A stretch of DNA of 64,000 bases from a virus (Duplodnaviria; Heunggongvirae; Uroviricota; Caudoviricetes). This document shows, one piece after another, positions 15,616 through 61,445 of the stretch (the first letter of the stretch is position 1; every line of letters starts with the position of its first letter). The notes under the pieces were generated by a model. The model did no database searches, was not told the DNA's origin, and was given only the letters and a program-made list of their open reading frames with translations. Made by a program: the position numbers and the translations under genes. The stretch is from the IMG/VR virus record IMGVR_UViG_3300042259_000129; one strand, written 5' to 3'.

Positions 15616-15836
15616 TTTCTTTCTCCTTTTTTAAATTTTATATTTTTTAAAATTTGAAATTCTGAACAATTAAGAGTAACTTCATCAATTAAAATAAGTT
15701 TAATATCATTTGTTGAATACATTTGATCATTACAAAACCTATCAAGCAATTTTCTAATTTCAATTCCTATCTCTTTAGAAATTTCAATAGCTTCGGGTGT
15801 ATAAGTCTCATACCTTTCATTAAACAAAGATTTCAT
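15612..15836 (-). CDS. Hypothetical protein. First gene of the leftward cluster, next to the TnpB element.
   Basis: AAGGAA ribosome-binding site before ATG 15836. The longer ORF-track version (to 15938) would run into the repeat and TnpB region. Confidence 0.4.
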   Translation of the reverse strand: MKSLFNERYETYTPEAIEISKEIGIEIRKLLDRFCNDQMYSTNDIKLILIDEVTLNCSEFQILKNIKFKKGERK

Positions 15837-15849
15837 TTTTCGTTCCTTA

Positions 15850-15857
15850 TATAAATA
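15850..15857 (+). promoter_or_regulatory. T4-type late promoter (TATAAATA) oriented into tnpB.
   Basis: Exact TATAAATA match. gp55, the late sigma factor, is encoded at 23961. Confidence 0.45.
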
Positions 15858-15873
15858 GTTAAAAAACCAAAAT

Positions 15874-17103
15874 TTGTTTTCTATAAAGAGATATATAATA
15901 TTAAAATTAGGTTGTAAACAAACGATTAGATCATCCAAACATATTTTGAAGTATCAGACTGGTTCCAAGACGAAAGTCTTGAACAAGTTGTTTGACGACT
16001 TCAGAACAGATCTGTCTTGGTATATTGATCTAATCATTTCAAGTCAGCTTCCACTAACCAAGTTTATGTCTTCTAAGGATCTTCCATCAGGAATCATTAC
16101 TCATTCCCAATGGAAACAAATTCTTTATAAGACGGCTTCTGAAATAGTCAGGTCTCAATACAAACAAGCCTCTAATAGAAGATTTAAACACTATAAGAAA
16201 TTGTTTCATAAGTGTATTAGTGCAAATAAACATTGTTCTTTCACTGACAAGAGATTTAGTGAACTAAACCTCAAGCCAATTCACCAATCTAAGTTCTTTA
16301 GTAAACCCGATTTGAAGAATTTCTCCATCACATTAGATTCAAGATTGATTGATTTTCAATATGGGCTTCATTTCGATGAATTTGTAAGAATCAAGACCCC
16401 ATTATTTCATGAATCTAAGAAACGAGCTATTACAATCAATGTCCCTATTAAACATCATAAGCACAGTCGAAAATTCGATTCTTGGGAACGAAAGAACTCA
16501 GTTCGATTAACACTAAAGAACAATATAATGAATCTTGAATTGATCTACGAGAAAGAAGCACCAGCACTAAAGACCAATGGTTCTGTTCTTGGAATCGATC
16601 AGGGCTATAAGAAACTAATGTCTTGTTCAGATGGAACATTTCTTGGTTCTGAGATGGAATCAATCTACAAATTCATTTCCAACAAGAAGCAAGGTTCCAA
16701 ATCCTTCAAGAGGGCACTGATCCATAGGACCAATGAAACCAATCGAATTTGTAATTCACTAGATCTTTCAGATGTCAAAGAACTTGTGGTCGAAGACCTA
16801 AAGAACCTAAAACACAAGACAAAATTGTCAACAAATTTTATGAACAAGATGCAGCGCTGGGTTTACCCAGCAGTACTAAGCAAACTTGAATCCTTGGCTG
16901 AAATGAACGGTGTTCATTTCACGAAAGTGAATCCTGCTTATACTTCACAGACTTGTTCTAATTGCGGATGTGTGGACCCTGAGTCTCGCCAAGGCGAAGA
17001 CTTCAAGTGTTTGCATTGTGACCATGAGATTGATGCAGATTGAAATGCATCGATCAATATTGCCCGTTTGGGAATTTATAGTTCCCAAAGTCCAAAAAGC
17101 TAA
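15874..17103 (+). CDS. tnpB: TnpB-like RNA-guided nuclease (IS200/IS605 OrfB family). One in-frame TGA inside RuvC-III. Start codon uncertain.
   Basis: LGIDQGYKKLM (RuvC-I Asp), VVEDLKNLK (RuvC-II Glu), zinc finger CSNCGC...CLHCDHE, and DAD[TGA]NASINIARLG (RuvC-III). TnpB proteins typically end ..DADxNAAxNI... Confidence 0.8.
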
Positions 17104-17154
17104 TTTCAATGATTTTAGTAACTATCTATCATTAAGTTCTTATTTTCCTCTTCA

Positions 17155-17162
17155 TATAAATA
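17155..17162 (+). promoter_or_regulatory. T4-type late promoter (TATAAATA) upstream of gene 17189.
   Basis: Exact TATAAATA 27 nt upstream of the ATG. Part of the 22-bp repeat. Confidence 0.5.
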
Positions 17163-17188
17163 GTTAAAAACCATGGAGTTTGACAAAA

Positions 17189-17626
17189 ATGTTAGATAAA
17201 TCGCTCTCACAGTGTTTTGATATTGATGCTGCAAAACAGGAACTTAATGATGTTAAAAATCAATTGGATGAAGATGTAAACAATCCTAATGAAATTCTTC
17301 GCTCAAATATTGAACGTGCAGAAAGATTATTGGATAAAATTGAAACCGAGTGAGATGTGGGCACCACAAATGCAACTATTAGACTTGTTGAAATAGCAGC
17401 CAAATTGATTGATTGTATAACCTCTGCTGCAAACAGTATGTTAGCTAATGATGTTAGTTTGGAAACTACAAATCAAAAACAGGAATATTTGGATCTTAAG
17501 AAATTAGAATTTGAATTAAAGAAGAATAAAGAAGATAAGGTGTTACCATCAGGAGATAATAACACCTATAATCAAAATAATATTATTTTAACATCAAGAG
17601 AAGACATTTTGAAGTTAATGAAATAA
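17189..17626 (+). CDS. Hypothetical protein, 146 aa, with 1 TGA.
   Basis: The ATG 17189 frame runs to 17626 across one TGA. The track shows only the distal part, 17357..17626. Confidence 0.5.
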
Positions 17627-18971: not shown

Positions 18972-19502
18972 ATGAAATCACTATTAGAAAGAATTGAATT
19001 ATTTGTAGAGGAAAAAGATTCTGAATACCAAAAGTTCTTTAAGAAAAAACTTAAGGAATATGGTGTTGATGAGCCTGATGAATTAAGTAAAGAAGATAAG
19101 AAAAAGTTTTATTCTGAAATCGAAAAAGAATGAGATAAAGAAGACGATCATGTCGATGAGTCTGAAGACGAAGATAAAGAAGAGTCAGACGATGAAGAAG
19201 ACGATGAAGAAGACGATGAAGAAGACGATGAAGAAGACGATGAAGAAGACGATGACGATGATGACAATCTTGACGAAGCAGCTGATCCTCTTGTCAAATT
19301 AAATAAAAAGAAGGCTGCCCTAGAAAAGAAAATTGAAGCTAAAAAAGATGCCTTGAGTTTGGCTAGAGAACGTAGAAGAATGAAGGGTAACAGTAAAGGG
19401 GTCCAGGGGGATAGAGAAATTAAATTATCATCTGAGATTTCATCTTTGGGCCAAGAGCTTCATATGATTAATGCTGAAATTAAAAAATTAGAGGGCAAGT
19501 AA
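18972..19502 (+). CDS. Acidic protein with a (DDEE)n repeat tract and a C-terminal coiled coil.
   Basis: One TGA. Tandem gaagacgatgaagaa units at 19186-19262. GGAG ribosome-binding site. Confidence 0.55.
19186..19262 (+). repeat. In-frame 15-bp tandem repeat (gaagacgatgaagaa), 5 copies, encoding (EDDEE)n.
   Basis: Directly visible in the sequence. Confidence 0.8.
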
Positions 19503-19931
19503 ATGTTGTTTGAAGAATACTTAGATGAAGAAGAATATCTTGAGGAACTTAACGAACTTCTATTTGACTTTATAGATTCTTTAGATCTAGAGAGTCTTTC
19601 TGATGAACAAAATGAAAGACTCGATGACCTTCTTGAATTCATCACTGATATGGAAATTGAATATTCAGACGATGAAGAATCCGATGATGAGGAAGAAGAT
19701 CTAGAAGAAGCTGTAAAGAAAAGAGTTGTTCGAAAAGGAAAAATTATTCGCAAGCTTATTTGTAAAAAGGGGTTCAAAGCAATGGGCTCGAAATGCGTAC
19801 GTATGGCGGCCTCAGAAAGACGACTTCGTAAGAAAATGGCTAAAAGATCTGCTAAAAAAAGAAAAACCAAGAAATCAAGCATGCTTAGACACAGGGCTAG
19901 ATCAATGAGATTAGCCAGAAGAATTCATTAA
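19503..19931 (+). CDS. Protein with an acidic N-terminal half and a highly basic C-terminal tail. Possibly a DNA-binding or internal protein.
   Basis: 142-aa ORF. The C-terminus is RKGKIIRKL...KRSAKKRKTKK...RLARRIH. Confidence 0.55.
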   Translation: MLFEEYLDEEEYLEELNELLFDFIDSLDLESLSDEQNERLDDLLEFITDMEIEYSDDEESDDEEEDLEEAVKKRVVRKGKIIRKLICKKGFKAMGSKCVRMAASERRLRKKMAKRSAKKRKTKKSSMLRHRARSMRLARRIH

Positions 19932-23891: not shown

Positions 23892-23960
23892 TTGTATTGT
23901 TTACAATTTAATTCCCCTGTTTTAAATTTATATAAATTTGAAATGGGGGTATTTTTTATT

Positions 23961-24449
23961 ATGGAACCTAAAACAAAGGAAACTAAATGTAATTATTATG
24001 TAAAGAATAAAGATCTTATTATTGAGATTGAAAAGCTTAAGAGCACCAATGTCTTTTCTGATACTTTAGGGAAATATATTATTCAGATTGTAAATGGTCT
24101 TTCTCATAGACCAAACTTTAATGGTTACACATATTTGGAAGATATGAAGTCAGATGCTCATGTAGCAATCATCAAAGGTCTCAGAAATTTTGATTTAGAA
24201 AAATCTAATAATCCATTCGCTTACATCACTCAGATTGCTTGAAATGCATTTATCGCATTTATAGGCAATGAAAAGAAAAAATCCAAAACAAAGAAAAGAT
24301 TATTTGATCTTAAAGAAATCATTCAAGAAGACGATTCTATGAGTGCTATCAACTATTCATATTATTGTGAAATTGAAGTTTTTGAAATAGATGAAGAGAC
24401 ACCTAATTTGAACAATTGTAATTTAGAAATATGTGAGGATAAAGAATAA
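23961..24449 (+). CDS. gp55: Late-transcription sigma factor gp55-like.
   Basis: KCNYYVKNKDL...GLSHRPNFNGYTY...AIIKGLRNFD...NPFAYITQIA[TGA]NAF aligns with T4 gp55 (KYNYVNNKEL...GLSKRFNFSGYTQ...ASIKGLHNFD...NPHAYITQACFNAF). Confidence 0.8.
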
Positions 24450-25506: not shown

Positions 25507-25872
25507 TATTGTTTCACCAATCAATATAATTCTATATACTATACCCTCCGTACCAAGTTAATATATTAACTACCCTGCCGGGATTCAATTGTAAACAGGG
25601 AAAATGAGATCAGATGATAAAATATGCTCAATGAGGAAAATAAGTCCGGAAATCTCGAGATTTTCACACTTTTCCGGAAGCCTAATTATTTCAATAACTT
25701 AGAAATCCACCAAAATCTTAGTTTTCCTAATAATATCAATAACTTACGAGAAAACTGGGGAAAACTATGAAAAAAGGTGTATAAAACATTACGATTCCGA
25801 TGAGTTTTGAAAAAGCTAATAATTTCAATAATTTAGGATTCCACTTTTTAGTGTACTTCTTCTAAGAGATTG
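25507..25872 (+). repeat. Copy 1 of a ~370-bp noncoding repeat module, inside a 480-bp gene-free region.
   Basis: Shares a 63-bp block (tattgtttcaccaatcaatataattctatatactataccctccgtaccaagttaatatattaacta) and a 70-bp block (taattatttcaataacttagaaatccaccaaaatcttagttttcctaataatatcaataacttacgagaaa) with copy 2 (47765..48142). Confidence 0.8.
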
Positions 25873-28485: not shown

Positions 28486-28563
28486 GGCCCTGTAACTCAG
28501 TTGGAATAGAGTACGATCCTTCTAAGTTCGATGTCACAAGTTCGATTCTTGTCAGGGTCACCA
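28486..28563 (+). tRNA. tRNA-Arg (anticodon UCU) with an encoded CCA end.
   Basis: Manual cloverleaf fold. Acceptor GGCCCTG/CAGGGTC, D-arm ACTC..GAGT, anticodon loop CTTCTAA, T-arm ACAAG-TTCGATT-CTTGT. Confidence 0.75.
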
Positions 28564-28566
28564 TTT

Positions 28567-28640
28567 ACCCCTATAGTTCAGTTGGTTAGAACCCCCGGCT
28601 CATAACCGGAATGTCCCAAGTTCAAATCTTGGTAGGGGTA
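28567..28640 (+). tRNA. tRNA-Met or Ile2 (anticodon CAU). No encoded CCA.
   Basis: Manual cloverleaf fold. Acceptor ACCCCTA/TAGGGGT, D-arm GTTC..GAAC, anticodon loop CTCATAA, T-arm CCAAG-TTCAAAT-CTTGG. Confidence 0.7.
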
Positions 28641-28661
28641 CAATCTTCAAAGGAAAACATT

Positions 28662-37638: not shown

Positions 37639-37696
37639 TATCTGGCGCCAATTTTAAAAACTCCTTTTTATAAATAAAATAAAAGGGAGTTTTTTG

Positions 37697-39187
37697 ATGT
37701 CAATAATATGTCTTATATGCAATATAGAATGTAAATCTATGAAAGCACTTAAAACACATTTAACAAAAAAACATAATATATCTTTTAAATTTTATTATGA
37801 TAATAATCTTAAAGTAGATAATATGGACGGTATATGTAAGTTATGTAAAACAAATGAAACATATTTTATAAGTTCTTCTGGCAAATATAAACCATTGTGC
37901 GAAAAATGCGGCAAATCCAGGAGTATTCATGCACTAAAAATTTTATATGGAGAGGAAGAAGGAACTAGAAGATACAATGAAATCTGTGCTGGTTGTAGTA
38001 GAGACTTAGCATTCTTCACCAACAAATATGGAGAGGAAGAAGGAACTAGAAGATACAATGAATGAGTTAATAAAACAAAAAATAATAAACAAAATTTTAT
38101 AAAACGACACGGGGAAGAAGAAGGATTAAAGAAATATGACGAATATTGTTTATCAAAATCTTTATCTAAAGAAAAATTTATTTATAAGCATGGAGAGGAA
38201 GAAGGAACTAGAAGATACAATGAATGATCAAAATCACATCTTACATTAGAAGAATATATATCAAAGCATGGAGAGGAAGAAGGAACTAGAAGATACAATG
38301 AATGAGTAAATTCTGCTAAAAATTCCAAAGAAAACTTTATTATTAGATATGGAGAGGAAGAAGGATTAAAGAAATATAATGAATATTGTAATAAAGTTGG
38401 CTGTGGTTTAAACAATTTGATTAGAATATATGGAGAGGAAGAAGGAACTAGAAGATATAAAGAAGTTTGCAGTAACAAAAAAGGCATTGGCTCTTTAAAA
38501 TATTGTATTAATAGATACGGAAAGGAAGAAGGAGCTTCTTTTTATAATAGATGAAGTAAGTCTAGTGTGCCTACATTAGATAATATGATTAGAATATATG
38601 GAAAGGAAGAAGGAACTAGAAGACATACCATATTTAGAGAAAAATCAAAACAAAATTTACACAATTTTATAGATAGATATGGAGAAGATGAGGGCATAAA
38701 AAGATATAATTTGTTTTGTGAAAGATCATCAGGAAATACTAGGTCGGTTTCCAAAGAATCCTTAAAGTTATTTTATGAATTGATAGATTGATTATTTGAA
38801 GAGAATATTGCAGATTTTAAAGATATTAAATGTGGTATACCAGAAAGTTCTGAATTGTGTATAACATACAATAATAGAAAAAATAGATTTATGTTTGATT
38901 TTACATTATTTGATAAACTTATAATAGAATATAATGGCAATGGATCTCATGTAAGAGATACATGATCTATAGATAAAAAAGAACAATGAAGGCATGTTTG
39001 AGACAAAGAATGTGACTATATTAAAGCACTTGAAAGGGACGCCTTTAAAAATAATATCGCTATTAATGCTGGTTATAAAATTCTTACTGTATGAGCAGAA
39101 GATAAATTTGAAGAAAATTTAAAGTTATGTAAAAAATTTATATTGGAAGAAATGATTGATGAAGAAACTGGAGAAGTAATTCTCTAA
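37697..39187 (+). CDS. Zinc-finger protein with 11 tandem YGEEEGTRRYNEW-type repeats and a C-terminal Vsr/DUF559-like (PD-(D/E)XK) endonuclease-type domain. About 497 aa.
   Basis: N-terminal CLICNIEC...H..H and CKLCK...CEKCGK. Repeats xxYGEEEG(T/L)(R/K)(R/K)YNE(W/Y). C-terminal FDFTLFDKLIIEYNGNGSHV...ILTVWAED. Confidence 0.55.
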
Positions 39188-39257: not shown

Positions 39258-39749
39258 TTACATTTTGTATTTGATTTGCAACTTCTTTAAAATTCTTTTT
39301 GTTCCAAAATGAATAGGCGCAGGAATATCTTTAAAAGATGTAATTCATTTATAAGCTGAATGTTCCCAATTTAACTTTGGTTCAAATATCTCATCCACAG
39401 TTATTATAAAGGTTGTAAAAGTAAAATCTCCATCCTCAAAAATATCAAATGGTTTTTCTGAAATTTTAAAGGTGCCATTATATCGCAGTTCTTCTTTAAA
39501 TTCTCTTTTGGCTGTTATTTTTGGTCATTTATCAGAATCATCAACTTTTCCCGAAACAACAATGCTTCAAGTTCCTGCCTCTTTGACTTTTTTCCATCCG
39601 TCTATAGTATCTTTTTGTCTTTGAAGAACTAGGAAGGCTTTTTCCTTTTTAGCATATACAATGGCACCAGCAGCCGCCTTTCCAAAATAGGACCTTTTAG
39701 AATCACCACTCTTTAGATCCATTCTCAAAAATTTAATAAATTGTGTCAT
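39258..39749 (-). CDS. NUDIX hydrolase-like protein, with 3 TGA.
   Basis: Nudix-box-like AKREFKEELRYNG downstream of GKAAAGAIVYAKK. Starts right after a terminator hairpin. Confidence 0.5.
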
Positions 39750-39756
39750 AATGAAA

Positions 39757-39772
39757 GGGAGCCGAAGCTCCC
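39757..39772 (-). terminator. Hairpin GGGAGC-CGAA-GCTCCC downstream of the giant ORF.
   Basis: 6-bp GC-rich stem with a tetraloop. The identical element recurs at 58915-58930. Confidence 0.5.
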
Positions 39773-47764: not shown

Positions 47765-48142
47765 TATTGTTTCACCAATCAATATAATTCTATATACTAT
47801 ACCCTCCGTACCAAGTTAATATATTAACTATCATATTTCTCCGGAGTTGTAAATAGAGAAAATTCAAGTTTATACCACATCTCGAATATTTTTTTATCAG
47901 AAAGTCTGGAAATTTTGAGATTTTTCATGTTTCCAGGAAGCTTAATTATTTCAATAACTTAGAAATCCACCAAAATCTTAGTTTTCCTAATAATATCAAT
48001 AACTTACGAGAAATCCACCAAAATCTATAGAAAAACGTAATGTTTTATACATCATTTTCTTAGGATTTCGAATAGTTAATAATTTTAATAATTTAGGATT
48101 TCTTAAAATCCTCTTTTTCTCCATTAGAAATTTCTATAAATA
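47765..48142 (+). repeat. Copy 2 of the ~370-bp noncoding repeat module, in a divergent intergenic region.
   Basis: Same blocks as 25507..25872. It also carries an internal duplication of aaatccaccaaaatct. Confidence 0.8.
48135..48142 (+). promoter_or_regulatory. T4-type late promoter (TATAAATA).
   Basis: 35 nt upstream of ATG 48177. Confidence 0.5.
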
Positions 48143-50107: not shown

Positions 50108-51553
50108 ATGTCAAATACTATTAGAATTAAAAGACGCGCTATAGGTGGTGCCATAGGTGCCCCTTCTTCTCTTGAAAATGCAGAATTAGCATTTAATGAG
50201 GCAGATGATACTTTGTATTATGGTAAAGGAACAGGTGGTGTAGGGGGTTCTGCTACAACTATAGAACCTATTGGTGGTATAGGAGCCTTTGTTTCAAAAA
50301 ATAATATTGATCAAACTATAGACGGAGAAAAAACTTTTGTAGGTACAGTTATTGCTCCAACTCAGGATTCTACTGATGATTCAACAAAGGTAGCTACAAC
50401 AGCTTTTGTAAAATCAATAGGATATGTTCCTGCCCCTACTGGTGTAGTTACGGGAACATTTACAAAGGTTACTATAAATTCAAACGGATATGTTACGCTA
50501 GGTTCAACACTTAGTGCTTCTGATATCCCTTCATTAACAGCTTCCAAAATATCTGATTTTGATACCCAAGTAAGATTATCCGGTTTAGACCAAATGGCCG
50601 AACCAGAATCAAATGTATCATTTAATGATGTTAGAATTACAAATCTTGCAACACCTGTTAATGATAATGATGCTGCAAATAAATTATATGTTGATACTGC
50701 AATTCAGGGCATTAAACCAAAGAACTCTGTAAAGGCAGCGACAACAGGTAATATCACATTATCTGCAACACAAACAATTGATGATATTTCTGTTATAGAT
50801 GGGGATAGAGTATTAGTAAAAAACCAAACAACAAGTTCACAGAATGGTATTTATATTGTTTCTGGTAGTGCATGGACTCGCGCTGCGGATATGAATTCAT
50901 GGGATGAAGTTGTTTCAGCATTCGTATTTGTTGAGGAAGGTACTACAAACGCCGATACTGGTTGGTTATGTTCCGCAAATAGTGGTGGTACATTAGATAC
51001 AACGGCGATTACATGGGTTCAGTTTTCAAGCGCAGGATCAATAACTGCTGGGACGGGTTTATCAAAAGATGGCAATACACTTAATGTTGGTGCAGGAACG
51101 GGTATCACAGTTGGTGCTGATGATGTTGCTTTAACAGGACAGTCTTTAGCATTACATAATTTATCTACAAATGGGTTAATAACAAGAACTGGATCTGGAA
51201 CTGTTACTTCAAGAACTATTTCTACTTCAGGAACTGGCATATCCGTCGCAGATGGAAATGGCGTATCAGCTAACCCAACTATTTCATTGTCTACTGCATT
51301 GTCTACTGTTGGTACCTTAACCCCAGCAGCTGATAGAATTGCTTATTATACAAGTGCTTCTACTGCCTCCTTAACAGCATTAACATCTTTTGGTAGATCA
51401 TTAATTGATGATGATAATGCTTCAACTGCAAGAACTACTTTAGGATTAGGAACAATTGCTACTCAAGCAGCATCAAGCGTTGCAATTACTGGCGGCTCAA
51501 TTACAAACTTAACAACTTTTGATGGGATCACTATTGACGGTGGAACATTCTAA
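50108..51553 (+). CDS. Tail fibre-like protein.
   Basis: N-terminal anchor motif IRIKRRAIGGAIGAPSSLENAELAFNEADDTLYYGKG. The rest is Gly/Thr/Ser-rich and beta-rich. A TATAAATA lies at 49982. Confidence 0.6.
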   Translation: MSNTIRIKRRAIGGAIGAPSSLENAELAFNEADDTLYYGKGTGGVGGSATTIEPIGGIGAFVSKNNIDQTIDGEKTFVGTVIAPTQDSTDDSTKVATTAFVKSIGYVPAPTGVVTGTFTKVTINSNGYVTLGSTLSASDIPSLTASKISDFDTQVRLSGLDQMAEPESNVSFNDVRITNLATPVNDNDAANKLYVDTAIQGIKPKNSVKAATTGNITLSATQTIDDISVIDGDRVLVKNQTTSSQNGIYIVSGSAWTRAADMNSWDEVVSAFVFVEEGTTNADTGWLCSANSGGTLDTTAITWVQFSSAGSITAGTGLSKDGNTLNVGAGTGITVGADDVALTGQSLALHNLSTNGLITRTGSGTVTSRTISTSGTGISVADGNGVSANPTISLSTALSTVGTLTPAADRIAYYTSASTASLTALTSFGRSLIDDDNASTARTTLGLGTIATQAASSVAITGGSITNLTTFDGITIDGGTF

Positions 51554-53461: not shown

Positions 53462-53958
53462 TGGGCTGCACTACTTTAAATATAGCTTCTGGAAATAACT
53501 TTCAATTATATTTCCCTGTTTTACCTTTTTCTACTGAATTACAAGACAGTAAGGAACTAACACTAAATCTGTTCAATGTTGTTATTCCTAGTATGTCATT
53601 TGACAGTACACCAATAAGTTGGCAGGGATGAGACACAAAAAGAGCAGATGGAACTTTACTTTTTGCAGACTTCACTTTTGATTTCATGATTGATGAAGAA
53701 TTCAAAAACTGACAAGTTCTTTTTGATTGAATGACAAACATCAACAACAATAAAGATGTATTAAGTAAGCACCCCAGAACTTATACTACAGATTCTTATA
53801 TTATGATTATGGATAATTTTGGAAAAAGTATTTTAAAATTAAAATTGATAAATTGTTTCCCTATGGATTTGGGAACAGTAACATTATCTTATAGAGAGGG
53901 TGAAACTTACATTGAATGTAATGCAACAATTTCTTATGATAGAATGGAAAGAGGATAA
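53461..53958 (+). CDS. Tail-tube-fold protein, paralogue of gp19 (gp3- or gp54-like), with 3 TGA.
   Basis: FADFTFDFMIDEEF...LINCFPMDLGTVTLSYREGE parallels the gp19 FEDWTVTF...LIGAWPTTIGELTLDY pattern. Confidence 0.55.
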
Positions 53959-53963
53959 AAATA

Positions 53964-53971
53964 TATAAATA
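53964..53971 (+). promoter_or_regulatory. T4-type late promoter (TATAAATA).
   Basis: About 50 nt upstream of the gp18 start. Confidence 0.5.
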
Positions 53972-54021
53972 TAATTATAATCTAATGATTCTTAGATTCT
54001 AATTTATGGAGGAAACAATAC

Positions 54022-55962
54022 ATGAGTTTCGGAATTTCGCCGGGCGTGGCGACGAGGGAAGTGGATCTAAGCACCACAATTCCTGCAGTAGCAACTTCTA
54101 TTGCTGTAAACGTCCTAAGAAAAACATACAAAGGCCCTGAATACGAACAGTATTTAGTAACAAATACAGATGAACTTATTGATGCATTTGGTAAACCTGC
54201 TGATAGTTCTTTTATTGATATTCTGTCTTCTGCAGGATATCTTAAATATGGAAGCATGCTCTATTGTACAAGGGTTATGCCTACTGATGCTACTTTTGCT
54301 GGTACAAAAATTTTAACTGGAACAAATTCTACCCAGGAAGCCACTGCTAACTTCACTTTTGAAGCTACTGGAACTGTTGAAGGAACTGAAGATGATGGTC
54401 CTTATACCTATACCTCATTAGGAACAACTGATATGAAGATGTTCCCTGAAATGGTAGACACTTTAATGGGTGAAGATGACCCACTTTGGGTACTTGCTAA
54501 ATATCGTGGTGAATTTGGAAACAATACTCGTTTACTTGTTTATGACAAGGCCACATATGATGCTGTTAAGTATTTTGATACACAGACTGAAACATTTGAT
54601 ATTCCTTCTGGCGTATCTTTAACTGCTTCAGCTACGGCAGCAGTATCTGGAATGTGGGTAGATTATGAAGCTAATCCCGATTTTGGAACTCCTGGTTACC
54701 AGGATGATCTTCCATTTGTTGTAATTCGTGATCTCGATACTCCTATGACTGATGAAAAACAATTCACAATCGTAGTCCAAGCTAAAGATCAGGGTTCAAC
54801 AATATGGGAAGACAAAGAGGTCTTCATTGTTTCTTCTGATGAAAATTCAATTGATGATTCCGGCGTTTCTAATTTTGTTGAGACTGTTGTAAATGAACAG
54901 TCAAAGTATATTAATGTAGCTTTGAATCCTGTCTTTAAAACAACTACAGAAATTGATTCGCCCGCGATTGGGGCCATTATGACTCGTATGGCCACCCTTT
55001 CTGGTGGAAAGAATGGTGTATTTGGAAGACATGAAGATGTAACTGTTCAGGCTGGTGAAGATGCTGCTTGTATTGAAGCATATAATCTTTATGCTAATCC
55101 TGAAGAAATTGATGTCAATCTCTTTATCGAATCAGATAAGGGTGTAACTGTAAAAACCTACCTTGTAGAGCTTTGTGAATCAATTCGTAGAGATTGTTTT
55201 GTTGTACTTGATGTTCTAAGATCCCATGTTCTAAACAACAAAGGTTCTGAAACATTAGATATGGTAAAATGGAGAAAAGGACAAGCTGGTTCTACATTTA
55301 ATCCTAATACTTCATATGCTGCTCTATATGGTAACTGGATCGAAGTATTTGATACTTGGAACAAAAAATATCGTTGGCTTCCTCTCTCCGGTCATATGGC
55401 TGGTCTATATGCTCATACAGATGATGTAGCTGATGCATGGTGAGCACCTGCTGGATTGAATAGAGCTATTCTAACTGGTGTTCGTAGACTTGCTTTTAAT
55501 CCTACTGAAGGAAATCGAGATGCAATGTATGTTGCAGGAATTAACCCTGTTGTTTCTTTTAGTGGTCAGGGCAAAGTAGTTTGAGGACAGAAGACCCTAT
55601 TAGATAAACAGAGTGCATTTAATAGAATTAATGTTCGCAGGTTGTTCCTCATATTGGAAAAAGCCATCGCAAAAAGTGCCAAATACTTTTTATTCGAGAT
55701 GAACGATGAAATTACTTGGATGTTAATGACCAATATGATTGAGCCTTTCCTTCGTGATATTCAGGGCCGCCGTGGCATTTATGCCTTCAAGGTCCAGATT
55801 GATGAAACAACTAATACCCCAGAAAGAATTGATCGTAACGAGCTAGTTGGGAATATATGGATCCAGCCCGCCAGAGCAGTCGAGTTTATCCGGCTTAACT
55901 TTATCGCAACAAAAACTGGGGCTAACTTCGATGAACTAATTGGAGCAGGTGCGGTTTCTTAA
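54022..55962 (+). CDS. gp18: Tail sheath protein gp18-like, 646 aa, with 2 TGA.
   Basis: The C-terminal 200 aa align closely with T4 gp18 (RWLPLSGHMAGLYAHTDDV...INVRRLF...IDRNELVGNIWIQPARAVEFIRLNFIATKTGANFDEL versus RWVPLAADIAGLCARTDNV...INVRRLF...IDRNEFVATFYIQPARSINYITLNFVATATGADFDEL). Confidence 0.9.
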
Positions 55963-55976
55963 TTTTTTATTTACAA

Positions 55977-55984
55977 TATAAATA
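55977..55984 (+). promoter_or_regulatory. T4-type late promoter (TATAAATA).
   Basis: Exact match just after the gp18 stop. Confidence 0.4.
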
Positions 55985-56098
55985 AAATATCTTATCTTTA
56001 AATTTAATGGAGAAGGACAACACCGGCCAGTGCTGAGGGTTGCTCCCACATCCCTCTAACTTCTCTTTAAATTTCAAATTCTATGGGAGTAGACTATC

Positions 56099-58051
56099 AT
56101 GATTATTTGTTGAGACAATCTAGAAAAACATAATATTAAATTAAGCAATAGAGGAAATTTTAGAGGTAATGATGGTACATATTATTATCATGATTTATGT
56201 CTAGAATGTGGTGAGCCTTTTTTAAGTAAAGGAAAACATAATATACAATATTGTTCATATGAATGTATGACTAAGTCTCAAATATATAGAGAAAAAATTG
56301 GAAATGAAAAAGCACTTCTTAATGAATCTACTGATATTATATTAACAAAAGAGGAAATTTTAGAATTAAGAGTTAAATACCCCAAAAGATATATTAAAAT
56401 ATTAAAAAACAAATATCCAAAAACAATACAACAAATAGAATTGTTTTTTAATGACATTAAATCCAATATTACTAACAGTATATTATCTCAAAAAATATTC
56501 CATTATGTTTTTAATTTAAAAAATATTCCTGTATGCCCTCTTTGTGGAAATATATTACCATTTAACACATTATTAGAGTCATGGGGATATAGAAAATTTT
56601 GTTCAAGAATATGTGCTATAAATAATCCAGATTTAATAAGAAAACGTGATCCTAACCAAGATGTTAAAAAGGAAAGAAATAATAGAGGAATTAAAATTTT
56701 AAAATCTTCAGATATTAAAGTTTATTCATTAGAAAGAACCAATAAAATTTTTCTTTTATTTTTAGCTAAATTCAATTATGATTTTCAAAATGTTGCCATA
56801 AAAATTCTTAACAAGTCCCCAAAATTATATAAAAGTATAAACATCTATTATGCGGATTTTACTCATAGAGAAATATATTACCTTATTCTAAATAATAATC
56901 CAAAAGAAAGAATATGTTATATTTGTAAAAAAGAGAAAACACCATTATTAAGAAATGGTTATAGAAGCTATTGTACTAATTGTGGAAATAAACATAGTAA
57001 TATTATTGCGAGATTTAAAAAATATCCATTAATATATAATTATTGTAAAGATAATGATTATGAAATGATAGCATCTAGATATGAATTTGCTCTTAGTCCT
57101 CTAAAAACGACCGATGTTAAATGTTTAAGATGTAAAAATATCAGACCATTATCTATAGAATTAATAAATAAAGGAGTTTCTTGTTCCTGTAGAGTTAAGG
57201 GAGGAACTAGTAAGGCAGAAAACGAAATAGCAAAATTTTTGAATATTAATCATCGCAGGGGAAATAAAGAAATTTTAGATGGTCTTGAGATAGATATCTT
57301 TATTCCAAATTCCAATTTGGGGATTGAATATGATGGTATATATTATCATTCTGAAATTTCAGGAAATAAAAATAAAAAATATCATATAAATAAGACAGAT
57401 ATTTGTGATGAAAATAATATTCAACTTATTCATATATTTGAAACGGAATGGAAAGATAAACAATCTATAGTTAAATCTGCACTTCTTTCTAAGTTGGGTA
57501 TTTTTGAAAATAGAATATATGCTAGAAAATGCGAAATAAGATCTCTTACTTTTGAAGAATCTAATATCTTTCTTCTTCAAAATCACCTCCAAGGATATTG
57601 TAATTCGTCTATTAGATATGGGCTTTTTTATAATGATGAACTTGTTTCATGTATGACTTTTGGTAAGAGAAAAATAACAGGAAAAACTAAACTTGAGCTT
57701 TTAAGATTTTGTAATAAACTTAATACACAAGTCATTGGGGGAGCAAGTAAATTATTTAAACACTTTGTTAGAAACAATGAATTTGAAGAAATAATTTCCT
57801 ATGCAGATCGTAGATGGTCTAATGGTAATTTATATGAACAACTTGGGTTTGAATTTAGTCATAAGAGTGCTCCGTCCTATTGGTACATTATTAATGGGAA
57901 GTTGGTACATAGATCCGTTTATATGAAACATAAATTACCAAGTTTATTAAAGGATTTTGATCCTAATCTTACTGAATGGGAAAATATGCAAATGAATGGA
58001 TTTGATAGAATTTGGGATTGTGGGTGTTTAGTTTATAGGTATGCAAGGTAG
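56099..58051 (+). CDS. Multi-zinc-finger protein with a Vsr/DUF559-like (PD-(D/E)XK) endonuclease-type domain. About 650 aa with 1 TGA.
   Basis: At least six CxxCG...C knuckles (CLECGEPF..CSYEC, CPLCGNILPF..CSRIC, CYICKKE..CTNCGNK, CLRCKN...). The core LEIDIFIPNSNLGIEYDGIYYHSE...IQLIHIFETEW is the same domain family as the C-terminus of 37697..39187. ATG 56099 is upstream of track ORF 56267, in frame across one TGA. Confidence 0.55.
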
Positions 58052-58058
58052 AAATATT

Positions 58059-58208
58059 ATGAAAATAGAGAATATAGATGATTATAAAAAAGCTATAGAT
58101 GAATTATTTAGGATTGAACTTGTTGGCTATGAAAATCATGAAGAAGAATATATTAATAAACTTATTAAAAAAATACAAAAATTTGAAAATGAAAAATTAA
58201 AAGAATAA
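58059..58208 (+). CDS. Small hypothetical protein (49 aa).
   Basis: ATG-to-TAA, followed by a terminator. Confidence 0.35.
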   Translation: MKIENIDDYKKAIDELFRIELVGYENHEEEYINKLIKKIQKFENEKLKE

Positions 58209-58211
58209 AAA

Positions 58212-58237
58212 GGAGCCCAAAGGCTCCTTTTTATTTT
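58212..58237 (+). terminator. Rho-independent terminator.
   Basis: GGAGCC-CAAA-GGCTCC followed by TTTTTATTTT. Confidence 0.7.
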
Positions 58238-58282
58238 ATAATATTTTTATCTAATTCTAAAATAAACCTAATTCACACTCAT

Positions 58283-58663
58283 TTATTCCTCCACTTTAAA
58301 TCTATTAATTAAGTCATATGAATCCTTTCCAGAGATACCCCATCCATAAAGAAAATAATCAATATCATACATTCCATAGGGGGACTCCTCAGCTTCCATC
58401 AAAATCTCAAACGCTCTCTTCCAAGAACAATTACATGTTTTTCTCACTTCAGAGATTTTTTCTTCAAACTTTGCCAAATCTGCTTTTTCTTGAGCTTCCT
58501 GTTCTTCAATCTGGCGAGAGATCTCATCATCCAGGGATTTTATGGCATTCAGAAATTCTTCCATTGTGTTGAAGGGGAAATATCGGGGGCGAAAACCATG
58601 AGCATCCCTGTGCATATCAGAATAGAGCTGCCAATCTTCAGGGGTAAAAATCTTGAGGTTCAT
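58283..58663 (-). CDS. Hypothetical protein.
   Basis: 126-aa ORF. Confidence 0.5.
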   Translation of the reverse strand: MNLKIFTPEDWQLYSDMHRDAHGFRPRYFPFNTMEEFLNAIKSLDDEISRQIEEQEAQEKADLAKFEEKISEVRKTCNCSWKRAFEILMEAEESPYGMYDIDYFLYGWGISGKDSYDLINRFKVEE

Positions 58664-58665
58664 GA

Positions 58666-58809
58666 TTATTCCTCCTTTCCTATATTAAAAAGGTAATTAA
58701 GAAATTGATCCCCAGATTCAAACTCCATTTCAAATTCAGGTTCCTTTCCATATTGAGCAATAAACTTTTCCTTGTAGAGAGCAATTTCACATTCAGTTGG
58801 GATATACAT
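58666..58809 (-). CDS. Small hypothetical protein (47 aa).
   Basis: ATG-to-TAA ORF with a GGAGG ribosome-binding site for the next gene inside its 3' end. Confidence 0.3.
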   Translation of the reverse strand: MYIPTECEIALYKEKFIAQYGKEPEFEMEFESGDQFLNYLFNIGKEE

Positions 58810-58909
58810 TTTGATCTCCTGGGTTATTTGTTGTTGTGTTAAGATTAGAATATAAAAGTTTTGAAAGTTTGTAAACAGTTTTAAGAAAAAATTTCAAAAT
58901 ATGTAAACA

Positions 58910-58935
58910 AAAAAGGGAGCCGAAGCTCCCTTTTA
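58910..58935 (-). terminator. Terminator hairpin GGGAGC-CGAA-GCTCCC plus a T-run, downstream of gp23.
   Basis: On the minus strand the stem is followed by TTTTTTG. Same hairpin sequence as at 39757. Confidence 0.65.
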
Positions 58936-58957
58936 ATTGTTAATAAAAAACAATATT

Positions 58958-60199
58958 TTACGGCATTTCCGTAATAACGCTACGGATATAGTAATTTTCG
59001 GCGCCAAAGATATTGCTATGAAGGGCATATCGGCTCATTAGACCTATTGTGGGGTTGAATGAGTTCTCAAAAGTTGCTCTGCTTAATAGAAGTTGAATAA
59101 ATGGGCAATAAATTATTCCGGCATCCATACCTGAGCCGCCAGCACCCTTGTAACCAACAGTTAGTTCGTCTACAGTAGCGAAAGTATCACGGATAACTTT
59201 CATACGACCGTCTAGTGTACCAATGATTTCAACAGAGGTATTAGCAGTGTTTACATTACCAGATACAGGAGCAATTGTGAAACTGGAAGTTCCTTCAAGA
59301 GCTGCGCATACAGTAGGATTAGCAACTACGAAGTTACCAGCACCACGACGGGTTGTGATAGCAATGCGGTTAGCCATACGAACGGTACGATTGTAAAGGT
59401 TACGATATTTTTCATGTTCCCAGCGGCCATCAAAATGAGCAGAAGAAGCCCAAGATAGAGTGCCGAGCTGACCATCTACATAAGAGTAAGCATTGGTATT
59501 AGCAGCAGTTTTTACAGCATCAATGATTTCACGGTCAATTTCAGCCTGAATTTCATAACCAAGGATATCAAGCATTTCAGATTCGATGTCAAGACCATGC
59601 ATAGCATTAAGATCCTGAGCAACTTCTAAGGACCAGCGGCTGCGTAGCTTACGGGTCTTAGCTTCAATCTGAGCTTTTTCGATGGTTAGGTTAACTTCCT
59701 TGATCTGATCGCCAGTACCAATACCTAGACCAACAGCAGGAGAAGTACTAGAACCTAGAATTTCACCAGCAGAAGTAACCATAGAGCCAGTGTATGACTT
59801 ATCTACAGTGTTGTAACCAAGTTCAGTGTTAGAACCAGAGTTGTAAGTCTGACCAGCGCGGAAACGAAGAGCGAAAGCTAGACCAACAGGGGAGGTCATA
59901 GGCTGAACACCAACGGTTTCGTGAGCAATTAGATTAGGGAAAGTTCTACGAACCATGGGAATAGCAATCTTGTGGAATTCACCAGAAGTTGCATAGTTAG
60001 AGCCAAAAGAACCATCTGTATAAGATGCTTCATTAACCATATTCTGTTCTTTTAGATAATTGAACTCATTCTCAAGCATAATAGCTGTCATGGTTTCAAT
60101 TTTATTATCTTTAATCTTGCCTACCTTGGCAACGACTTTTTCCTCGTTGATAAGTGGATTCCACTTTTCTACTAGCTGATTAACGTTAATTTTAGACAT
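58958..60199 (-). CDS. gp23: Major capsid protein gp23-like.
   Basis: LVEKWNPLI, MVRRTFPNLIAHETVGVQPMTSPVGLAFALR and TVGYKGAGGSGMDAGIIYCPF match the T4 gp23 hallmark segments. 413 aa with no TGA. Confidence 0.9.
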   Translation of the reverse strand: MSKINVNQLVEKWNPLINEEKVVAKVGKIKDNKIETMTAIMLENEFNYLKEQNMVNEASYTDGSFGSNYATSGEFHKIAIPMVRRTFPNLIAHETVGVQPMTSPVGLAFALRFRAGQTYNSGSNTELGYNTVDKSYTGSMVTSAGEILGSSTSPAVGLGIGTGDQIKEVNLTIEKAQIEAKTRKLRSRWSLEVAQDLNAMHGLDIESEMLDILGYEIQAEIDREIIDAVKTAANTNAYSYVDGQLGTLSWASSAHFDGRWEHEKYRNLYNRTVRMANRIAITTRRGAGNFVVANPTVCAALEGTSSFTIAPVSGNVNTANTSVEIIGTLDGRMKVIRDTFATVDELTVGYKGAGGSGMDAGIIYCPFIQLLLSRATFENSFNPTIGLMSRYALHSNIFGAENYYIRSVITEMP

Positions 60200-60237
60200 T
60201 TTATTAAATTCCTCCTAAGAATTGTTCCTTATAAATT

Positions 60238-60245
60238 TATTTATA
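60238..60245 (-). promoter_or_regulatory. Late promoter (TATAAATA on the minus strand) for gp23. Part of a 45-bp promoter-plus-RBS cassette duplicated at 61438.
   Basis: AAATTCCTCCTAAGAATTGTTCCTTATAAATTTATTTATA is present upstream of both gp23 and gp22. Confidence 0.6.
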
Positions 60246-60430
60246 GTTTCTAATTTTCAATTTAGAAATTAGATTTTTGGCTTTGGTAACTATAAATTGC
60301 CAAATAGATTTTTTAAAATCAAATAATGCCTAGTATTGATTATACATAATTTTAATAATATTTTTAAAAGAATACCATTCTTTTAAAGTTTATTATGTAT
60401 ATATCTATTTATATTTTTTCGTTTTAAGTT

Positions 60431-61399
60431 TTAGATAAAGTTAAGATATTTAGAAACGAAAGAGTTATCCTCTTCCTTTTCTTCTGTGATTAGGGGTGTT
60501 GCAACACCATCGCCTTCAGCTTCAACTAGATCAGGATATTCTTTCTTAAGTTCTTTTCTATCCCAACCACCATCTTTAAGTAGCCATTCTACAGCAGTCT
60601 TTTTGTCTTTTGCATCAAAAGATACTTCAGACTCAGATACTGCTTTAGCAGATACACCAGCTTTCTTTAATTCGGAAACTGCCTTTTTAGGATCAACTAC
60701 TTTTACTGTTACCATCTTTTCAGTAATAACTTCTTCCTCTGTTAGAGTATCAACAATGATATCAAACTTCTTGTCAATAACTTCTTTATCAGTGATACCT
60801 TCAAGGATGGAGAAAACTTTTTCCTTCTGGGATTCAGTTAGACCTTCACACTTCTCATAAATATAAAGGGTGACTGAAGCTTCATGAAGTAGCTGCTTTC
60901 CGTTTAAGAATTTTTCTGTTAAATGATTCTTTTCATCACGGAGTTTTAGAATTTCATCTTTAGCTTCGGAAAGAAGAGACTTAGCTTCTTCATTGACTAG
61001 ACCTTCATCAATACCAAGACGAACCTTAAACTGCTCAATTAGATCGGAGTATAGTTCACCCTTACGAGCAAATTCCTTGATGTTTTCGGGGATCTGAAGT
61101 TTTTCAGCAAGAATATCATCTACGAAAAGAGAAAACTTTTCAGCAAGAGTGTCCTTATAAGTTTCAAACTTCTCTTCATATTCCTGTACAAGCTCTTCCT
61201 TTAAAGAAGTTTTTTCTTCTTCAAGAGCAGCCTCAACCATTTCTTTGGCTAGAACCTCAGCCTTTTCCCTGGAAAGCTCTTCGACTTTCTCATCTACTTT
61301 AGTATTGATAAGATCAGAGATCTTTGTTTCTACTTCGGTAACTACAGACTCATCAAGAGCTTCAACACCAAGTAGTTTGGTAATGTCCTTAATATTCAT
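60431..61399 (-). CDS. gp22: Prohead core scaffold protein gp22-like.
   Basis: Highly acidic E/K-rich coiled-coil protein lying between gp21 and gp23. Confidence 0.7.
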   Translation of the reverse strand: MNIKDITKLLGVEALDESVVTEVETKISDLINTKVDEKVEELSREKAEVLAKEMVEAALEEEKTSLKEELVQEYEEKFETYKDTLAEKFSLFVDDILAEKLQIPENIKEFARKGELYSDLIEQFKVRLGIDEGLVNEEAKSLLSEAKDEILKLRDEKNHLTEKFLNGKQLLHEASVTLYIYEKCEGLTESQKEKVFSILEGITDKEVIDKKFDIIVDTLTEEEVITEKMVTVKVVDPKKAVSELKKAGVSAKAVSESEVSFDAKDKKTAVEWLLKDGGWDRKELKKEYPDLVEAEGDGVATPLITEEKEEDNSFVSKYLNFI

Positions 61400-61437
61400 T
61401 AGTATAAATTCCTCCTAAGAATTGTTCCTTATAAATT

Positions 61438-61445
61438 TATTTATA
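61438..61445 (-). promoter_or_regulatory. Late promoter (TATAAATA on the minus strand) for gp22.
   Basis: Same cassette as at 60238. Confidence 0.6.

Follow-up and report, generated by a model that had tools for sequence, protein, structure and literature searches.

The locus considered here raises the question of how a solitary nuclease gene of the transposon type came to lie between two copies of a promoter-bearing repeat in a phage genome, and what it may do there. It is situated in a 64,000-nucleotide stretch of viral DNA (hereafter, the window; IMG/VR record IMGVR_UViG_3300042259_000129, class Caudoviricetes), in which a tnpB gene occupies the junction between two divergent gene clusters and is bracketed by a short direct repeat. 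An initial annotation, made from the sequence without database searches, had taken the repeat to flank the element itself and had offered the capture of tnpB together with a late promoter, or a non-canonical integration or homing event, as its possible source. According to the results presented below, the region most probably (probability of about 0.6) carries a cassette of TnpB and its omega-RNA belonging to the IS200/IS605 family (tnpB-only, IS1341-like), which has been immobilised, is expressed late, and stands between duplicated late promoters of the phage. The coordinates of the features are given in Table 1.

The tnpB Gene and Its Product

The C-terminal part of the protein encoded by the tnpB open reading frame (ORF) matched PF07282, the Cas12f1-like TNB domain (2.9e-20, above the gathering score). 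The RuvC triad was found in the window copy (D at 16597–16599, E at 16792–16794, and D at 17038–17040); in an alignment of 34 family members, D226, E291, and D373 were invariant, as were three of the four zinc-finger cysteines, the fourth being nearly so, and all four are present in the window copy as the CxxC pairs CSNC and CLHC. The closest solved relatives by sequence in PDB were Cas12f and TnpB proteins. The AlphaFold model of P0001, a protein 95% identical to the window TnpB, had a predicted local distance difference test (pLDDT) score of 88.4, displayed the WED/REC/RuvC fold of TnpB and Cas12f, and gave full-length Foldseek matches to AsCas12f (7e-17), ISFba1 TnpB (1.4e-13), and ISDra2 TnpB (2.8e-12).

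More than 1100 TnpB homologues were found, the nearest after P0001 being P0002 (74% identity). Dozens of full-length relatives were present in the viral collection; a one-genome-per-species set (185,579 species) contained five, one of which was a 95,161-bp contig listed as viral in IMG/VR. Judging by this distribution, the TnpB clade is largely phage-borne, occurring mainly on viral contigs. Searches by tblastn with the TnpA proteins of IS608 and ISDra2 gave no match in the window, and the same queries found none beside the phage-clade members at loci L001–L102 (1.5–10 kb of flank on each side), while they did match beside distant bacterial TnpBs. The initial description of the element as TnpB-only and of the IS200/IS605 type was thus borne out. 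No array of clustered regularly interspaced short palindromic repeats (CRISPR) was detected in the window by repeat and tandem-repeat searches, and an association of the window TnpB with CRISPR was therefore ruled out.

Under the standard code, tnpB would stop at TGA 17041–17043, just past the third catalytic Asp, whereas the frame runs on beyond this codon through the conserved ...NASINIA motif to the TAA. The coding density of the window (non-overlapping) rose from 69% under code 11 to 88% with TGA as a sense codon, and in alignments to related phage DNA the TGA codons of the window corresponded to TGG 28 times and its TGG codons to TGA 34 times. Since TGA interchanges with TGG in these alignments, it is on this evidence the tryptophan codon of the host phage; code 25, in which TGA specifies glycine, was ruled out because the exchange is with TGG and not with GGN codons. 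The earlier claim of a full-length TnpB was upheld with two qualifications: the ORF reaches the TAA solely because TGA is read as Trp, and ACG occupies the position at which the family starts.

Guide RNA Module at the 3′ End of tnpB

The omega-RNA had been expected in the 3′ end of tnpB and its right flank, and a covarying structured module was found there. Throughout the clade, the last tnpB codons form a stem-loop (SL1) in which a codon is the reverse complement of the codon six positions further on (TTG...CAA, AGA...TCT, ATG...CAT, and CAGG...CCTG), a pairing that is not explained by protein constraints. SL1 is followed by a linker of ~9 nt, a longer second stem-loop (SL2) at the stop codon, and (T/C)AACTAT. 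Compensatory changes were observed in six of the seven SL1 pairs (MAFFT/RNAalifold). A covariance model built on seven sequences recovered the module in 50-odd loci; among 54 distinct sequences, 89.9% of the cells were paired, compared with 67.4% in shuffles and 40–54% in slid-partner controls, and double-change cells numbered 193 versus 58 in shuffles. It should be noted that the 54-sequence alignment was fitted to the covariance model; the independent MAFFT/RNAalifold result for SL1 agrees with it. A search of Rfam with positions 15700–17400 gave no meaningful match.

Thus, the module has the properties of a guide scaffold, namely, it is structured, overlaps the 3′ end of the gene, and stops at the right end of the element, although SL2 of the window copy is shortened. 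Here 10 nt of the 3′ arm are deleted and a base of 4–5 bp is left, in which CTAA at 17100–17103 pairs with TTAG at 17115–17118. From the architecture of the family and by analogy with TnpB systems already characterised, the guide is predicted to comprise the 16–20 nt that follow position 17125 (CTATCATTAAGTTCTTATTT); its sequence is a decayed copy of the beginning of the coding region of the leftward phage gene. The initial annotation had placed the guide in catggagtttgac..., which is displaced by this mapping of the right end.

Ends of the Element and Its Sister Copies

The ends were determined by comparison with 13 other copies of the element, namely, L001, two in L002, L003–L005, L006–L008 (one 164.7-kb phage genome), and L300–L304; a further copy, L305, has only the left end, was cut off by the contig end, and was kept outside this set. 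Since L001 and L006 share a right flank and L003–L005 represent one locus, the 13 copies correspond to eleven right-flank contexts. In all of them, the right end has the form ...GCTAA-TTTCATTG-loop-CATTGAAATTAG-(T/C)AACTAT (AATTAT in the second L002 copy), beyond which the sequences diverge at once. In the window, the right end is accordingly position 17125.

The canonical left end starts ~150 nt before the ATG with TATTTAGATTC..., continues with small hairpins, and bears after them, ~30 nt upstream of the ATG, a perfect TATAAATA, the octamer of the T4 late promoter. One and the same left end is shared by eight insertion sites (ten copies), at which it is preceded by ...TATT[A/C] or a near variant, and the transposon-associated motif (TAM) may tentatively be given as approximately TATT[A/C] from these eight left flanks. 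No flanking duplication accompanies the canonical copies. A gene whose protein is 95% identical to that of the window is found after a Band_7 gene in L001 and L008, i.e., at a locus other than that of the window, and identity is higher in the tnpB DNA (~88%) than in the phage backbone (~75%). Taken together, these comparisons indicate that the element is mobile, or recently was so.

The window copy differs from this pattern in that ~100 nt of the canonical left end, hairpins included, are absent. In folds of single-stranded DNA, the canonical right and left ends had z-scores of −4.2 and −2.5, respectively, whereas those of the window ends were 0.18 and −0.16. Since its left-end hairpins are gone and its right-end hairpin is shortened, the window copy cannot transpose by the single-strand route of the TnpA type. 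The left end is also missing from L300 and L301, and the left breakpoint of L301 lies at the same A-rich motif as that of the window copy. Elsewhere in the window, a search for solo left-end remnants gave only weak matches in coding sequence, which were dismissed.

Recombination between copies is indicated by L001, which agrees with L008 in its left flank and tnpB (99.9% identity) and with L006 in its right flank, the switch point being inside the 74-nt 3′ module common to the copies. This suggests that L001 is the product of recombination between two tnpB copies and hence of a large deletion or rearrangement between phage strains.

Some further features of the canonical ends were recorded. 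In L003, L006, L007, and L001/L008, the left end carries an outward-directed ribosome-binding site and ATG followed by a 17-codon ORF, MKNSLKHQ[C/Y]SSLENESK, which overlaps the second hairpin, and in three contexts the canonical element lies 15–35 nt upstream of a leftward phage gene.

Origin of the Promoter Repeat

The position of tnpB at a divergent junction, noted earlier, was confirmed: the ORFs up to 15836 are on the minus strand, those from 17189 onward are on the plus strand, and the cumulative GC skew has its minimum at this point. The exact 17-mer ATATAAATAGTTAAAAA occurs in the window only at 15849–15865 and 17154–17170, and the repeat (family D15) extends to 34 nt at 79% identity. 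As had been stated, each copy contains the perfect late-promoter octamer, one facing tnpB (P1) and the other facing the next gene, and a gp55-like factor is encoded in the same window.

The nature of the repeat was established from the empty alleles L014 and L015 (the latter from the 164.7-kb genome), which have homologues of both flanking genes and one promoter copy and are devoid of tnpB. In these alleles, a single ...CATATTTTCCTCTTTGTATAAATAGTTAAAAACC comes directly after the leftward gene and is adjoined by ATGGAGTTTGACAAAAATG..., which lies upstream of the 146-aa gene. Compared with the single native copy of L014, the right repeat copy of the window showed 92.9% identity over 42 nt (E = 5e-12) and the left copy 82.9% over 35 nt (E = 7e-6); because both copies match it, the repeat is beyond chance, and because L014 and L015 hold one copy without tnpB, it is native phage sequence that is present twice. 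On this comparison, the repeat is a duplication of ~47–55 bp of the native divergent late-promoter region, to which the start of the leftward gene also belongs. The left copy is the one still in use: it contains the start codon, ribosome-binding site, and first ~8 codons of the leftward 74-aa gene, and the element interior follows it directly at the junction AAAAAACC|AAAATTTG. In the right copy, the start of the leftward gene is mutated. The whole arrangement was 100% identical in independent assemblies from Joint Genome Institute (JGI) samples 3300042272 and 3300042277, and its features are therefore not sequencing or assembly errors.

Two of the initial proposals can be appraised at this point. 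The view of the repeat as the signature of a non-canonical event, and not of transposition, agrees with a native promoter that is duplicated in the window and single in L014 and L015, while its use as the boundary of the element had to be abandoned, since the right end is 17125 and the left repeat is native sequence fused to a hairpin-less element interior. The situation that had been named as a sign of an old domesticated gene, i.e., the same gene at the same locus in related phages with no repeat, was not encountered; the relatives display an empty locus with one repeat copy and carry tnpB elsewhere.

A history in two steps may be proposed. Initially, the element would have inserted into the first codons of the leftward gene, on the 3′ side of an ATATT-like motif, and so split the gene: the right flank (CTATCATTAAG...) aligns with the codons of this gene that follow CATATT in L014 and L015, and the resemblance of CATATT to the motif preceding canonical left ends fits an ordinary insertion in the leftward gene. 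A crossover with an uninterrupted genome at a short promoter-like homology would then have made the leftward gene whole again at the cost of the left end, with the promoter region now on either side of the insert. At the left junction, the sequence is A-rich and similar in the element interior and the native promoter region, the native segment (leftward-gene start and TATAAATAGTTAAAAACC) is found on both sides of the insert, and the canonical element just to the left of the window's junction resembles the native promoter (e.g., ATTATAAAATTAGTCAAAAAC versus TATATAAATAGTTAAAAAACC). The model is supported by the parallel cases of the L301 breakpoint and the remnant in the gp23 promoter described below; it is proposed with moderate confidence.

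Two other origins were considered and rejected. Had an excised circle integrated at the promoter homology by a Campbell-type event, left-end hairpins should stand between the right end of the element and the right repeat, where there are none. A left-end interior captured from this promoter region, or broadly homologous to it, was discarded as well; the similarity searches gave specific results for no more than the ~21 nt adjoining the junction, and hence only the short homology was retained in the model.

In the product of this history, the left promoter copy would drive tnpB late in infection and the right copy would drive the 146-aa gene. Going by its family, TnpB would associate with the RNA from the 3′ end of its gene and cut DNA under RNA guidance; like a free-standing homing endonuclease, it would thereby favour transmission of the cassette or keep out the genomes of related phages.

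It should also be recorded that the assemblies L313 and L314 both end at window position 15972, inside tnpB, and that L308–L310 start 35 nt upstream of gp23, at the repeated gp23 promoter; such breaks in independent short-read assemblies are as expected for sequences present in multiple copies in a population.

A Second Remnant in the gp23 Promoter Region

The window also contains a tnpB-less remnant of the same element, which consists of the element promoter, ~80 nt of unknown sequence, and the guide-RNA module and which lacks the left end. At its 5′ end, the P2-like ATATAAATAGATATATA, i.e., element promoter sequence, is fused to native ...AAAAAATATAAATAGAT. The omega-RNA-like SL1/SL2/AACTAT portion is at 60243–60309 (covariance model, 47 bits, E = 9e-8), and AACTAT is joined to AAATAAATTTATAAGG, re-forming TATAAATA before gp23. 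This insert of ~167 nt in the gp23 promoter is missing in the relatives L010 and L002 and is identical in an independent assembly. A scan of viral contigs for TATAAATAGTTAAAAA yielded more than 100 unrelated AT-rich matches, the sole relative among them being one already known. The would-be guide of the remnant, AAATAAATTTATAAGGAACAATTC, is identical to a paralogous promoter at ~61420–61443 (minus strand), upstream of the capsid-assembly gene.

Functional State of the tnpB Copy and Alternative Explanations

A number of observations weigh against the interpretation of the window copy as a late-expressed cassette of recombinational origin. ACG stands at 15922–15924, where all relatives have ATG, and the element's own late promoter, P2, reads TATAAAGA at 15883–15890, compared with TATAAATA in nine of the 13 other copies. 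Upstream of the ACG, TTG 15874 alone could serve as a start codon in frame, and no Shine–Dalgarno sequence is evident for it; given this and the ACG, translation of tnpB may be poor. The SL2 deletion is private to the window copy within its lineage, and with SL2 10 nt short the score of the module is 63.6 bits (E = 1e-11), down from ~100 bits in canonical copies. There is no guide target in hand, since the predicted guide had no other match in the window and matched the empty alleles L014 and L015 poorly. As regards insertion, the TAM is tentative because a precise filled/empty pair is available for no canonical copy, and a junction-pattern scan for the precise empty site of the L006 copy gave no match. 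As regards the crossover, the left-end interior and the native promoter are alike at only ~17 of 21 nt next to the junction, and their similarity over longer stretches had no robust statistical support.

Several of these observations would be expected if the copy were a decaying relic deprived of both ends, of the promoter P2, of the start codon, and of part of the scaffold, which encodes no active nuclease and whose repeat is a rearrangement scar. The altered start codon and P2, the SL2 deletion with its lower score, the failure of either end to fold, the missing guide target, and the presence in the same window of a frank tnpB-deleted remnant all favour such a reading. It is nevertheless unlikely, since the ORF is intact over 393 codons, and the ratio of nonsynonymous to synonymous substitution rates (dN/dS) between the window tnpB and six copies was 0.05–0.07, with 17 synonymous and four non-synonymous substitutions private to the window copy, which is no worse than in sister copies. 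According to these estimates, the window tnpB is under strong purifying selection. In addition, the perfect late promoter P1 is located 16 nt upstream of the in-frame TTG, and some natural members of the family have little or no SL2. On balance, a functional, late-expressed nuclease appears more likely than a dead relic.

Domestication, in which a fixed TnpB with a fixed guide would serve the phage and not the transposon (e.g., by marker exclusion of co-infecting relatives or through another target), was judged slightly less probable still. It accords with long-term purifying selection on several diverged paralogues of the same genome (dS of 0.5–0.6 at the above dN/dS), with a clade largely limited to viral contigs and never found near tnpA, with the recurrence of left-end-less copies (the window, L300, and L301), and with expression tied to the late programme of the phage and to its use of TGA as Trp. 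However, the eight insertion sites keep complete and precisely conserved ends, as is characteristic of an active mobile element, and the predicted guide of this copy is the vestige of a gene, unmatched in the relatives that were available. IS200/IS605 transposition generates no target duplication, and a reading of the repeat as a target-site duplication or as a footprint of transposition or homing that marks the element ends, suggested by two near-identical copies bracketing tnpB, is highly improbable given that the AACTAT end common to the 13 other copies falls 29 nt before the 17-mer core of the right repeat, that canonical copies have no such duplication, and that the left repeat adjoins the element interior with ~100 nt of the left end gone.

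Table 1. Positions of the tnpB cassette, the duplicated promoter segments, and associated features in the window.
Feature	Position	Strand	Remarks
Leftward 74-aa phage gene	15612–15836	−	Native; homologues at the same position in the empty-site alleles L014 and L015
Left copy of the duplicated native divergent-promoter segment	15815–15870		Exact core 15849–15865; matches the single copy in L014/L015
Late promoter P1, perfect TATAAATA	15850–15857	+	Native type, now facing tnpB; counterpart in L014/L015
Element 5′ leader	15871–15921	+	Holds the element's own late promoter P2; from alignments of copies
tnpB ORF	15874–17103	+	~400 codons; family start position 15922–15924; TAA stop 17101–17103
Omega-RNA-like 3′ module	17062–17125	+	SL1 17067–17089; SL2 remnant; AACTAT 17120–17125
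Predicted omega-RNA guide CTATCATTAAGTTCTTATTT	17126–17145	+	Position from family architecture; directly 3′ of the right end
Right copy of the duplicated native segment	17126–17172		Vestigial leftward-gene start and ribosome-binding site, then TATAAATA at 17155–17162
Rightward 146-aa gene	17189–17626	+	Native; in-frame TGA 17351–17353; in relatives directly after the single promoter copy
gp55-like late sigma factor	23892–24449	+	phrog_234 'late sigma transcription factor', E = 6e-32; expected reader of TATAAATA promoters
tnpB-less remnant of the same element	60243–60413	−	Inside the gp23 late-promoter region; flanked by TATAAATA(G/A)AT repeats

The Host Phage

By its gene content, the host phage is T4-like: a related contig that aligns with the window has annotated Gp23, T4 capsid-assembly protein, S77 prohead protease, and T4 portal, and the structural proteins encoded in the window include those of the baseplate hub, tail tube, and head closure. 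The late-promoter motif TATAAATA is enriched in the window (24 occurrences versus 14.8 expected), and at least 10 occurrences are within 60 nt upstream of an ORF of the same strand. A search of phage records in GenBank gave no relative of the backbone; its only match, a weak one, was between the C-terminal portion of tnpB and two records of Desulfovibrio phages.

The use of in-frame TGA is uneven across positions 1–64000, some ORFs having none and others up to nine. The codon is absent from most ORFs at ~25.9–36.6 kb, gp23, the capsid-assembly gene, and the 481-aa ORF at 50108–51553. No suppressor tRNA was found in the window, the sole tRNAs of which are tRNA-Arg(TCT) and tRNA-Met(CAT) at 28486–28641.

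Compared with the related 164.7-kb phage (L009 and L010), the gene order is rearranged: the block homologous to window positions ~53957–60892 is inverted there and sits directly upstream of the PhoH gene, and one breakpoint of gene order, at ~17621, coincides with the end of the gene that follows the tnpB locus. An intergenic segment of ~330 bp occurs twice in the window, at 25507–25840 and 47765–48100 (22,260 bp apart; 66 nt identical, the remainder 85%), and a relative of it was found ~1.3 kb upstream of the tnpB copy in L007. The ORF at 37694–39187 contains ten 81-nt (27-aa) tandem repeats with the motif YGEEEGTRRYNEW... and nine in-frame TGA codons. The GC-rich hairpin AAAGGGAGCCGAAGCTCCC, present at 39738–39772 and 58896–58930, closes two gene blocks, for which it probably serves as a common terminator. 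In an ORF downstream of PhoH, codon repeats for acidic residues (D/E) form long runs at 19110–19300 and 19647–19723.

Comparison with Known Systems and Significance

The nearest known systems are the TnpB proteins of IS200/IS605 elements with their omega-RNA or right-end element RNA (reRNA), such as ISDra2, ISFba1, and the IS1341 group. The similarity includes the fold, the RuvC D/E/D triad, and the zinc-finger TNB domain, a scaffold extending over both the 3′ end of tnpB and the right end, a guide taken from flanking DNA, and sister copies with hairpin ends, apparently inserted next to a short conserved motif. Unlike in these systems, TnpA was found neither in the window nor at the clade loci of the viral collection (within the flanks stated above), the clade is largely confined to phage contigs, its left end bears a late promoter of the T4 type, TGA has to be read as Trp, and the N-terminal half of TnpB is not recognised by Pfam OrfB_IS605; moreover, the window copy is without both end hairpins and stands between duplicated promoters of the host phage, with a duplication of ~47–55 bp. 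Thus, the protein and RNA of the window have the features of TnpB and omega-RNA that were examined, whereas as a transposon the copy falls short in TnpA and end hairpins, and the most fitting description of it is an immobilised, IS1341-like TnpB cassette. The features by which it varies from the known type are the built-in late promoter, dependence on TGA as Trp, membership in a TnpA-less, largely phage-borne clade, and fixation between duplicated native promoters. A built-in late promoter was also found upstream of seven of 36 more distantly related clade members, the expected number being about one.

Cas12f (type V-F) provides the best sequence and structure matches (AsCas12f and OsCas12f) and is similar in its size of ~400 aa and architecture, but the window has no CRISPR array and the guide would come from the scaffold at the transposon right end. 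With TldR, the nuclease-dead repressors derived from TnpB, the window copy shares the state of an immobilised TnpB relative with a fixed guide and no transposase; its intact catalytic D/E/D triad places it outside this class. The PeSL elements, promoter-associated mobile regulatory cassettes reportedly described in T4-type phages by Arbiol et al. in 2010, resemble the present locus in that short repeated promoters flank small gene cassettes and apparently act as recombination sites for their shuffling; however, those are early promoters with stem-loops, whereas here late promoters flank a transposon-derived nuclease.

The Seg and Mob homing endonucleases of T-even phages are likewise nuclease genes inserted between conserved phage genes at varying loci, under phage promoters and with local rearrangements, and a biased inheritance in co-infection may be expected by analogy. 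The analogy is one of function, since they belong to an unrelated protein family, and target recognition by TnpB would depend on an RNA guide and a TAM and not on protein. It may be suggested, very tentatively, that the phage-restricted, TnpA-less TnpB clade is the RNA-guided counterpart of Seg and Mob, consisting of cassettes timed by gp55 and gated by TGA as Trp, which would be spread and reshuffled at homologies of late promoters and guide-RNA modules, with left-end-less copies, like that of the window, kept because they exclude competitors during co-infection.

A passage in PMC12607003, citing Al-Shayeb et al. 2022, describes TnpB as frequent in phages, and a recent review presents TnpB as a homing endonuclease, dealing with homing in phages only for protein-guided enzymes (PMC13565253). 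A literature search found no paper linking TnpB to T4-like phages. The life of TnpB in phages has hardly been described, and the present locus offers a concrete and testable case, in which a cassette wired to the late programme and the genetic code is accompanied by a mapped scaffold, a predicted guide, filled and empty alleles, and several diverged copies under purifying selection. If the copy is inactive, it represents a well-documented transposon relic. A compact AT-rich TnpB with a minimal 3′ scaffold of ~65–75 nt could also be of interest for genome editing. As regards the biology of lytic phages, the results suggest that recombination and homing, and not TnpA transposition, maintain and spread such elements, and that promoter regions and gene order of the phage are reshaped by them.

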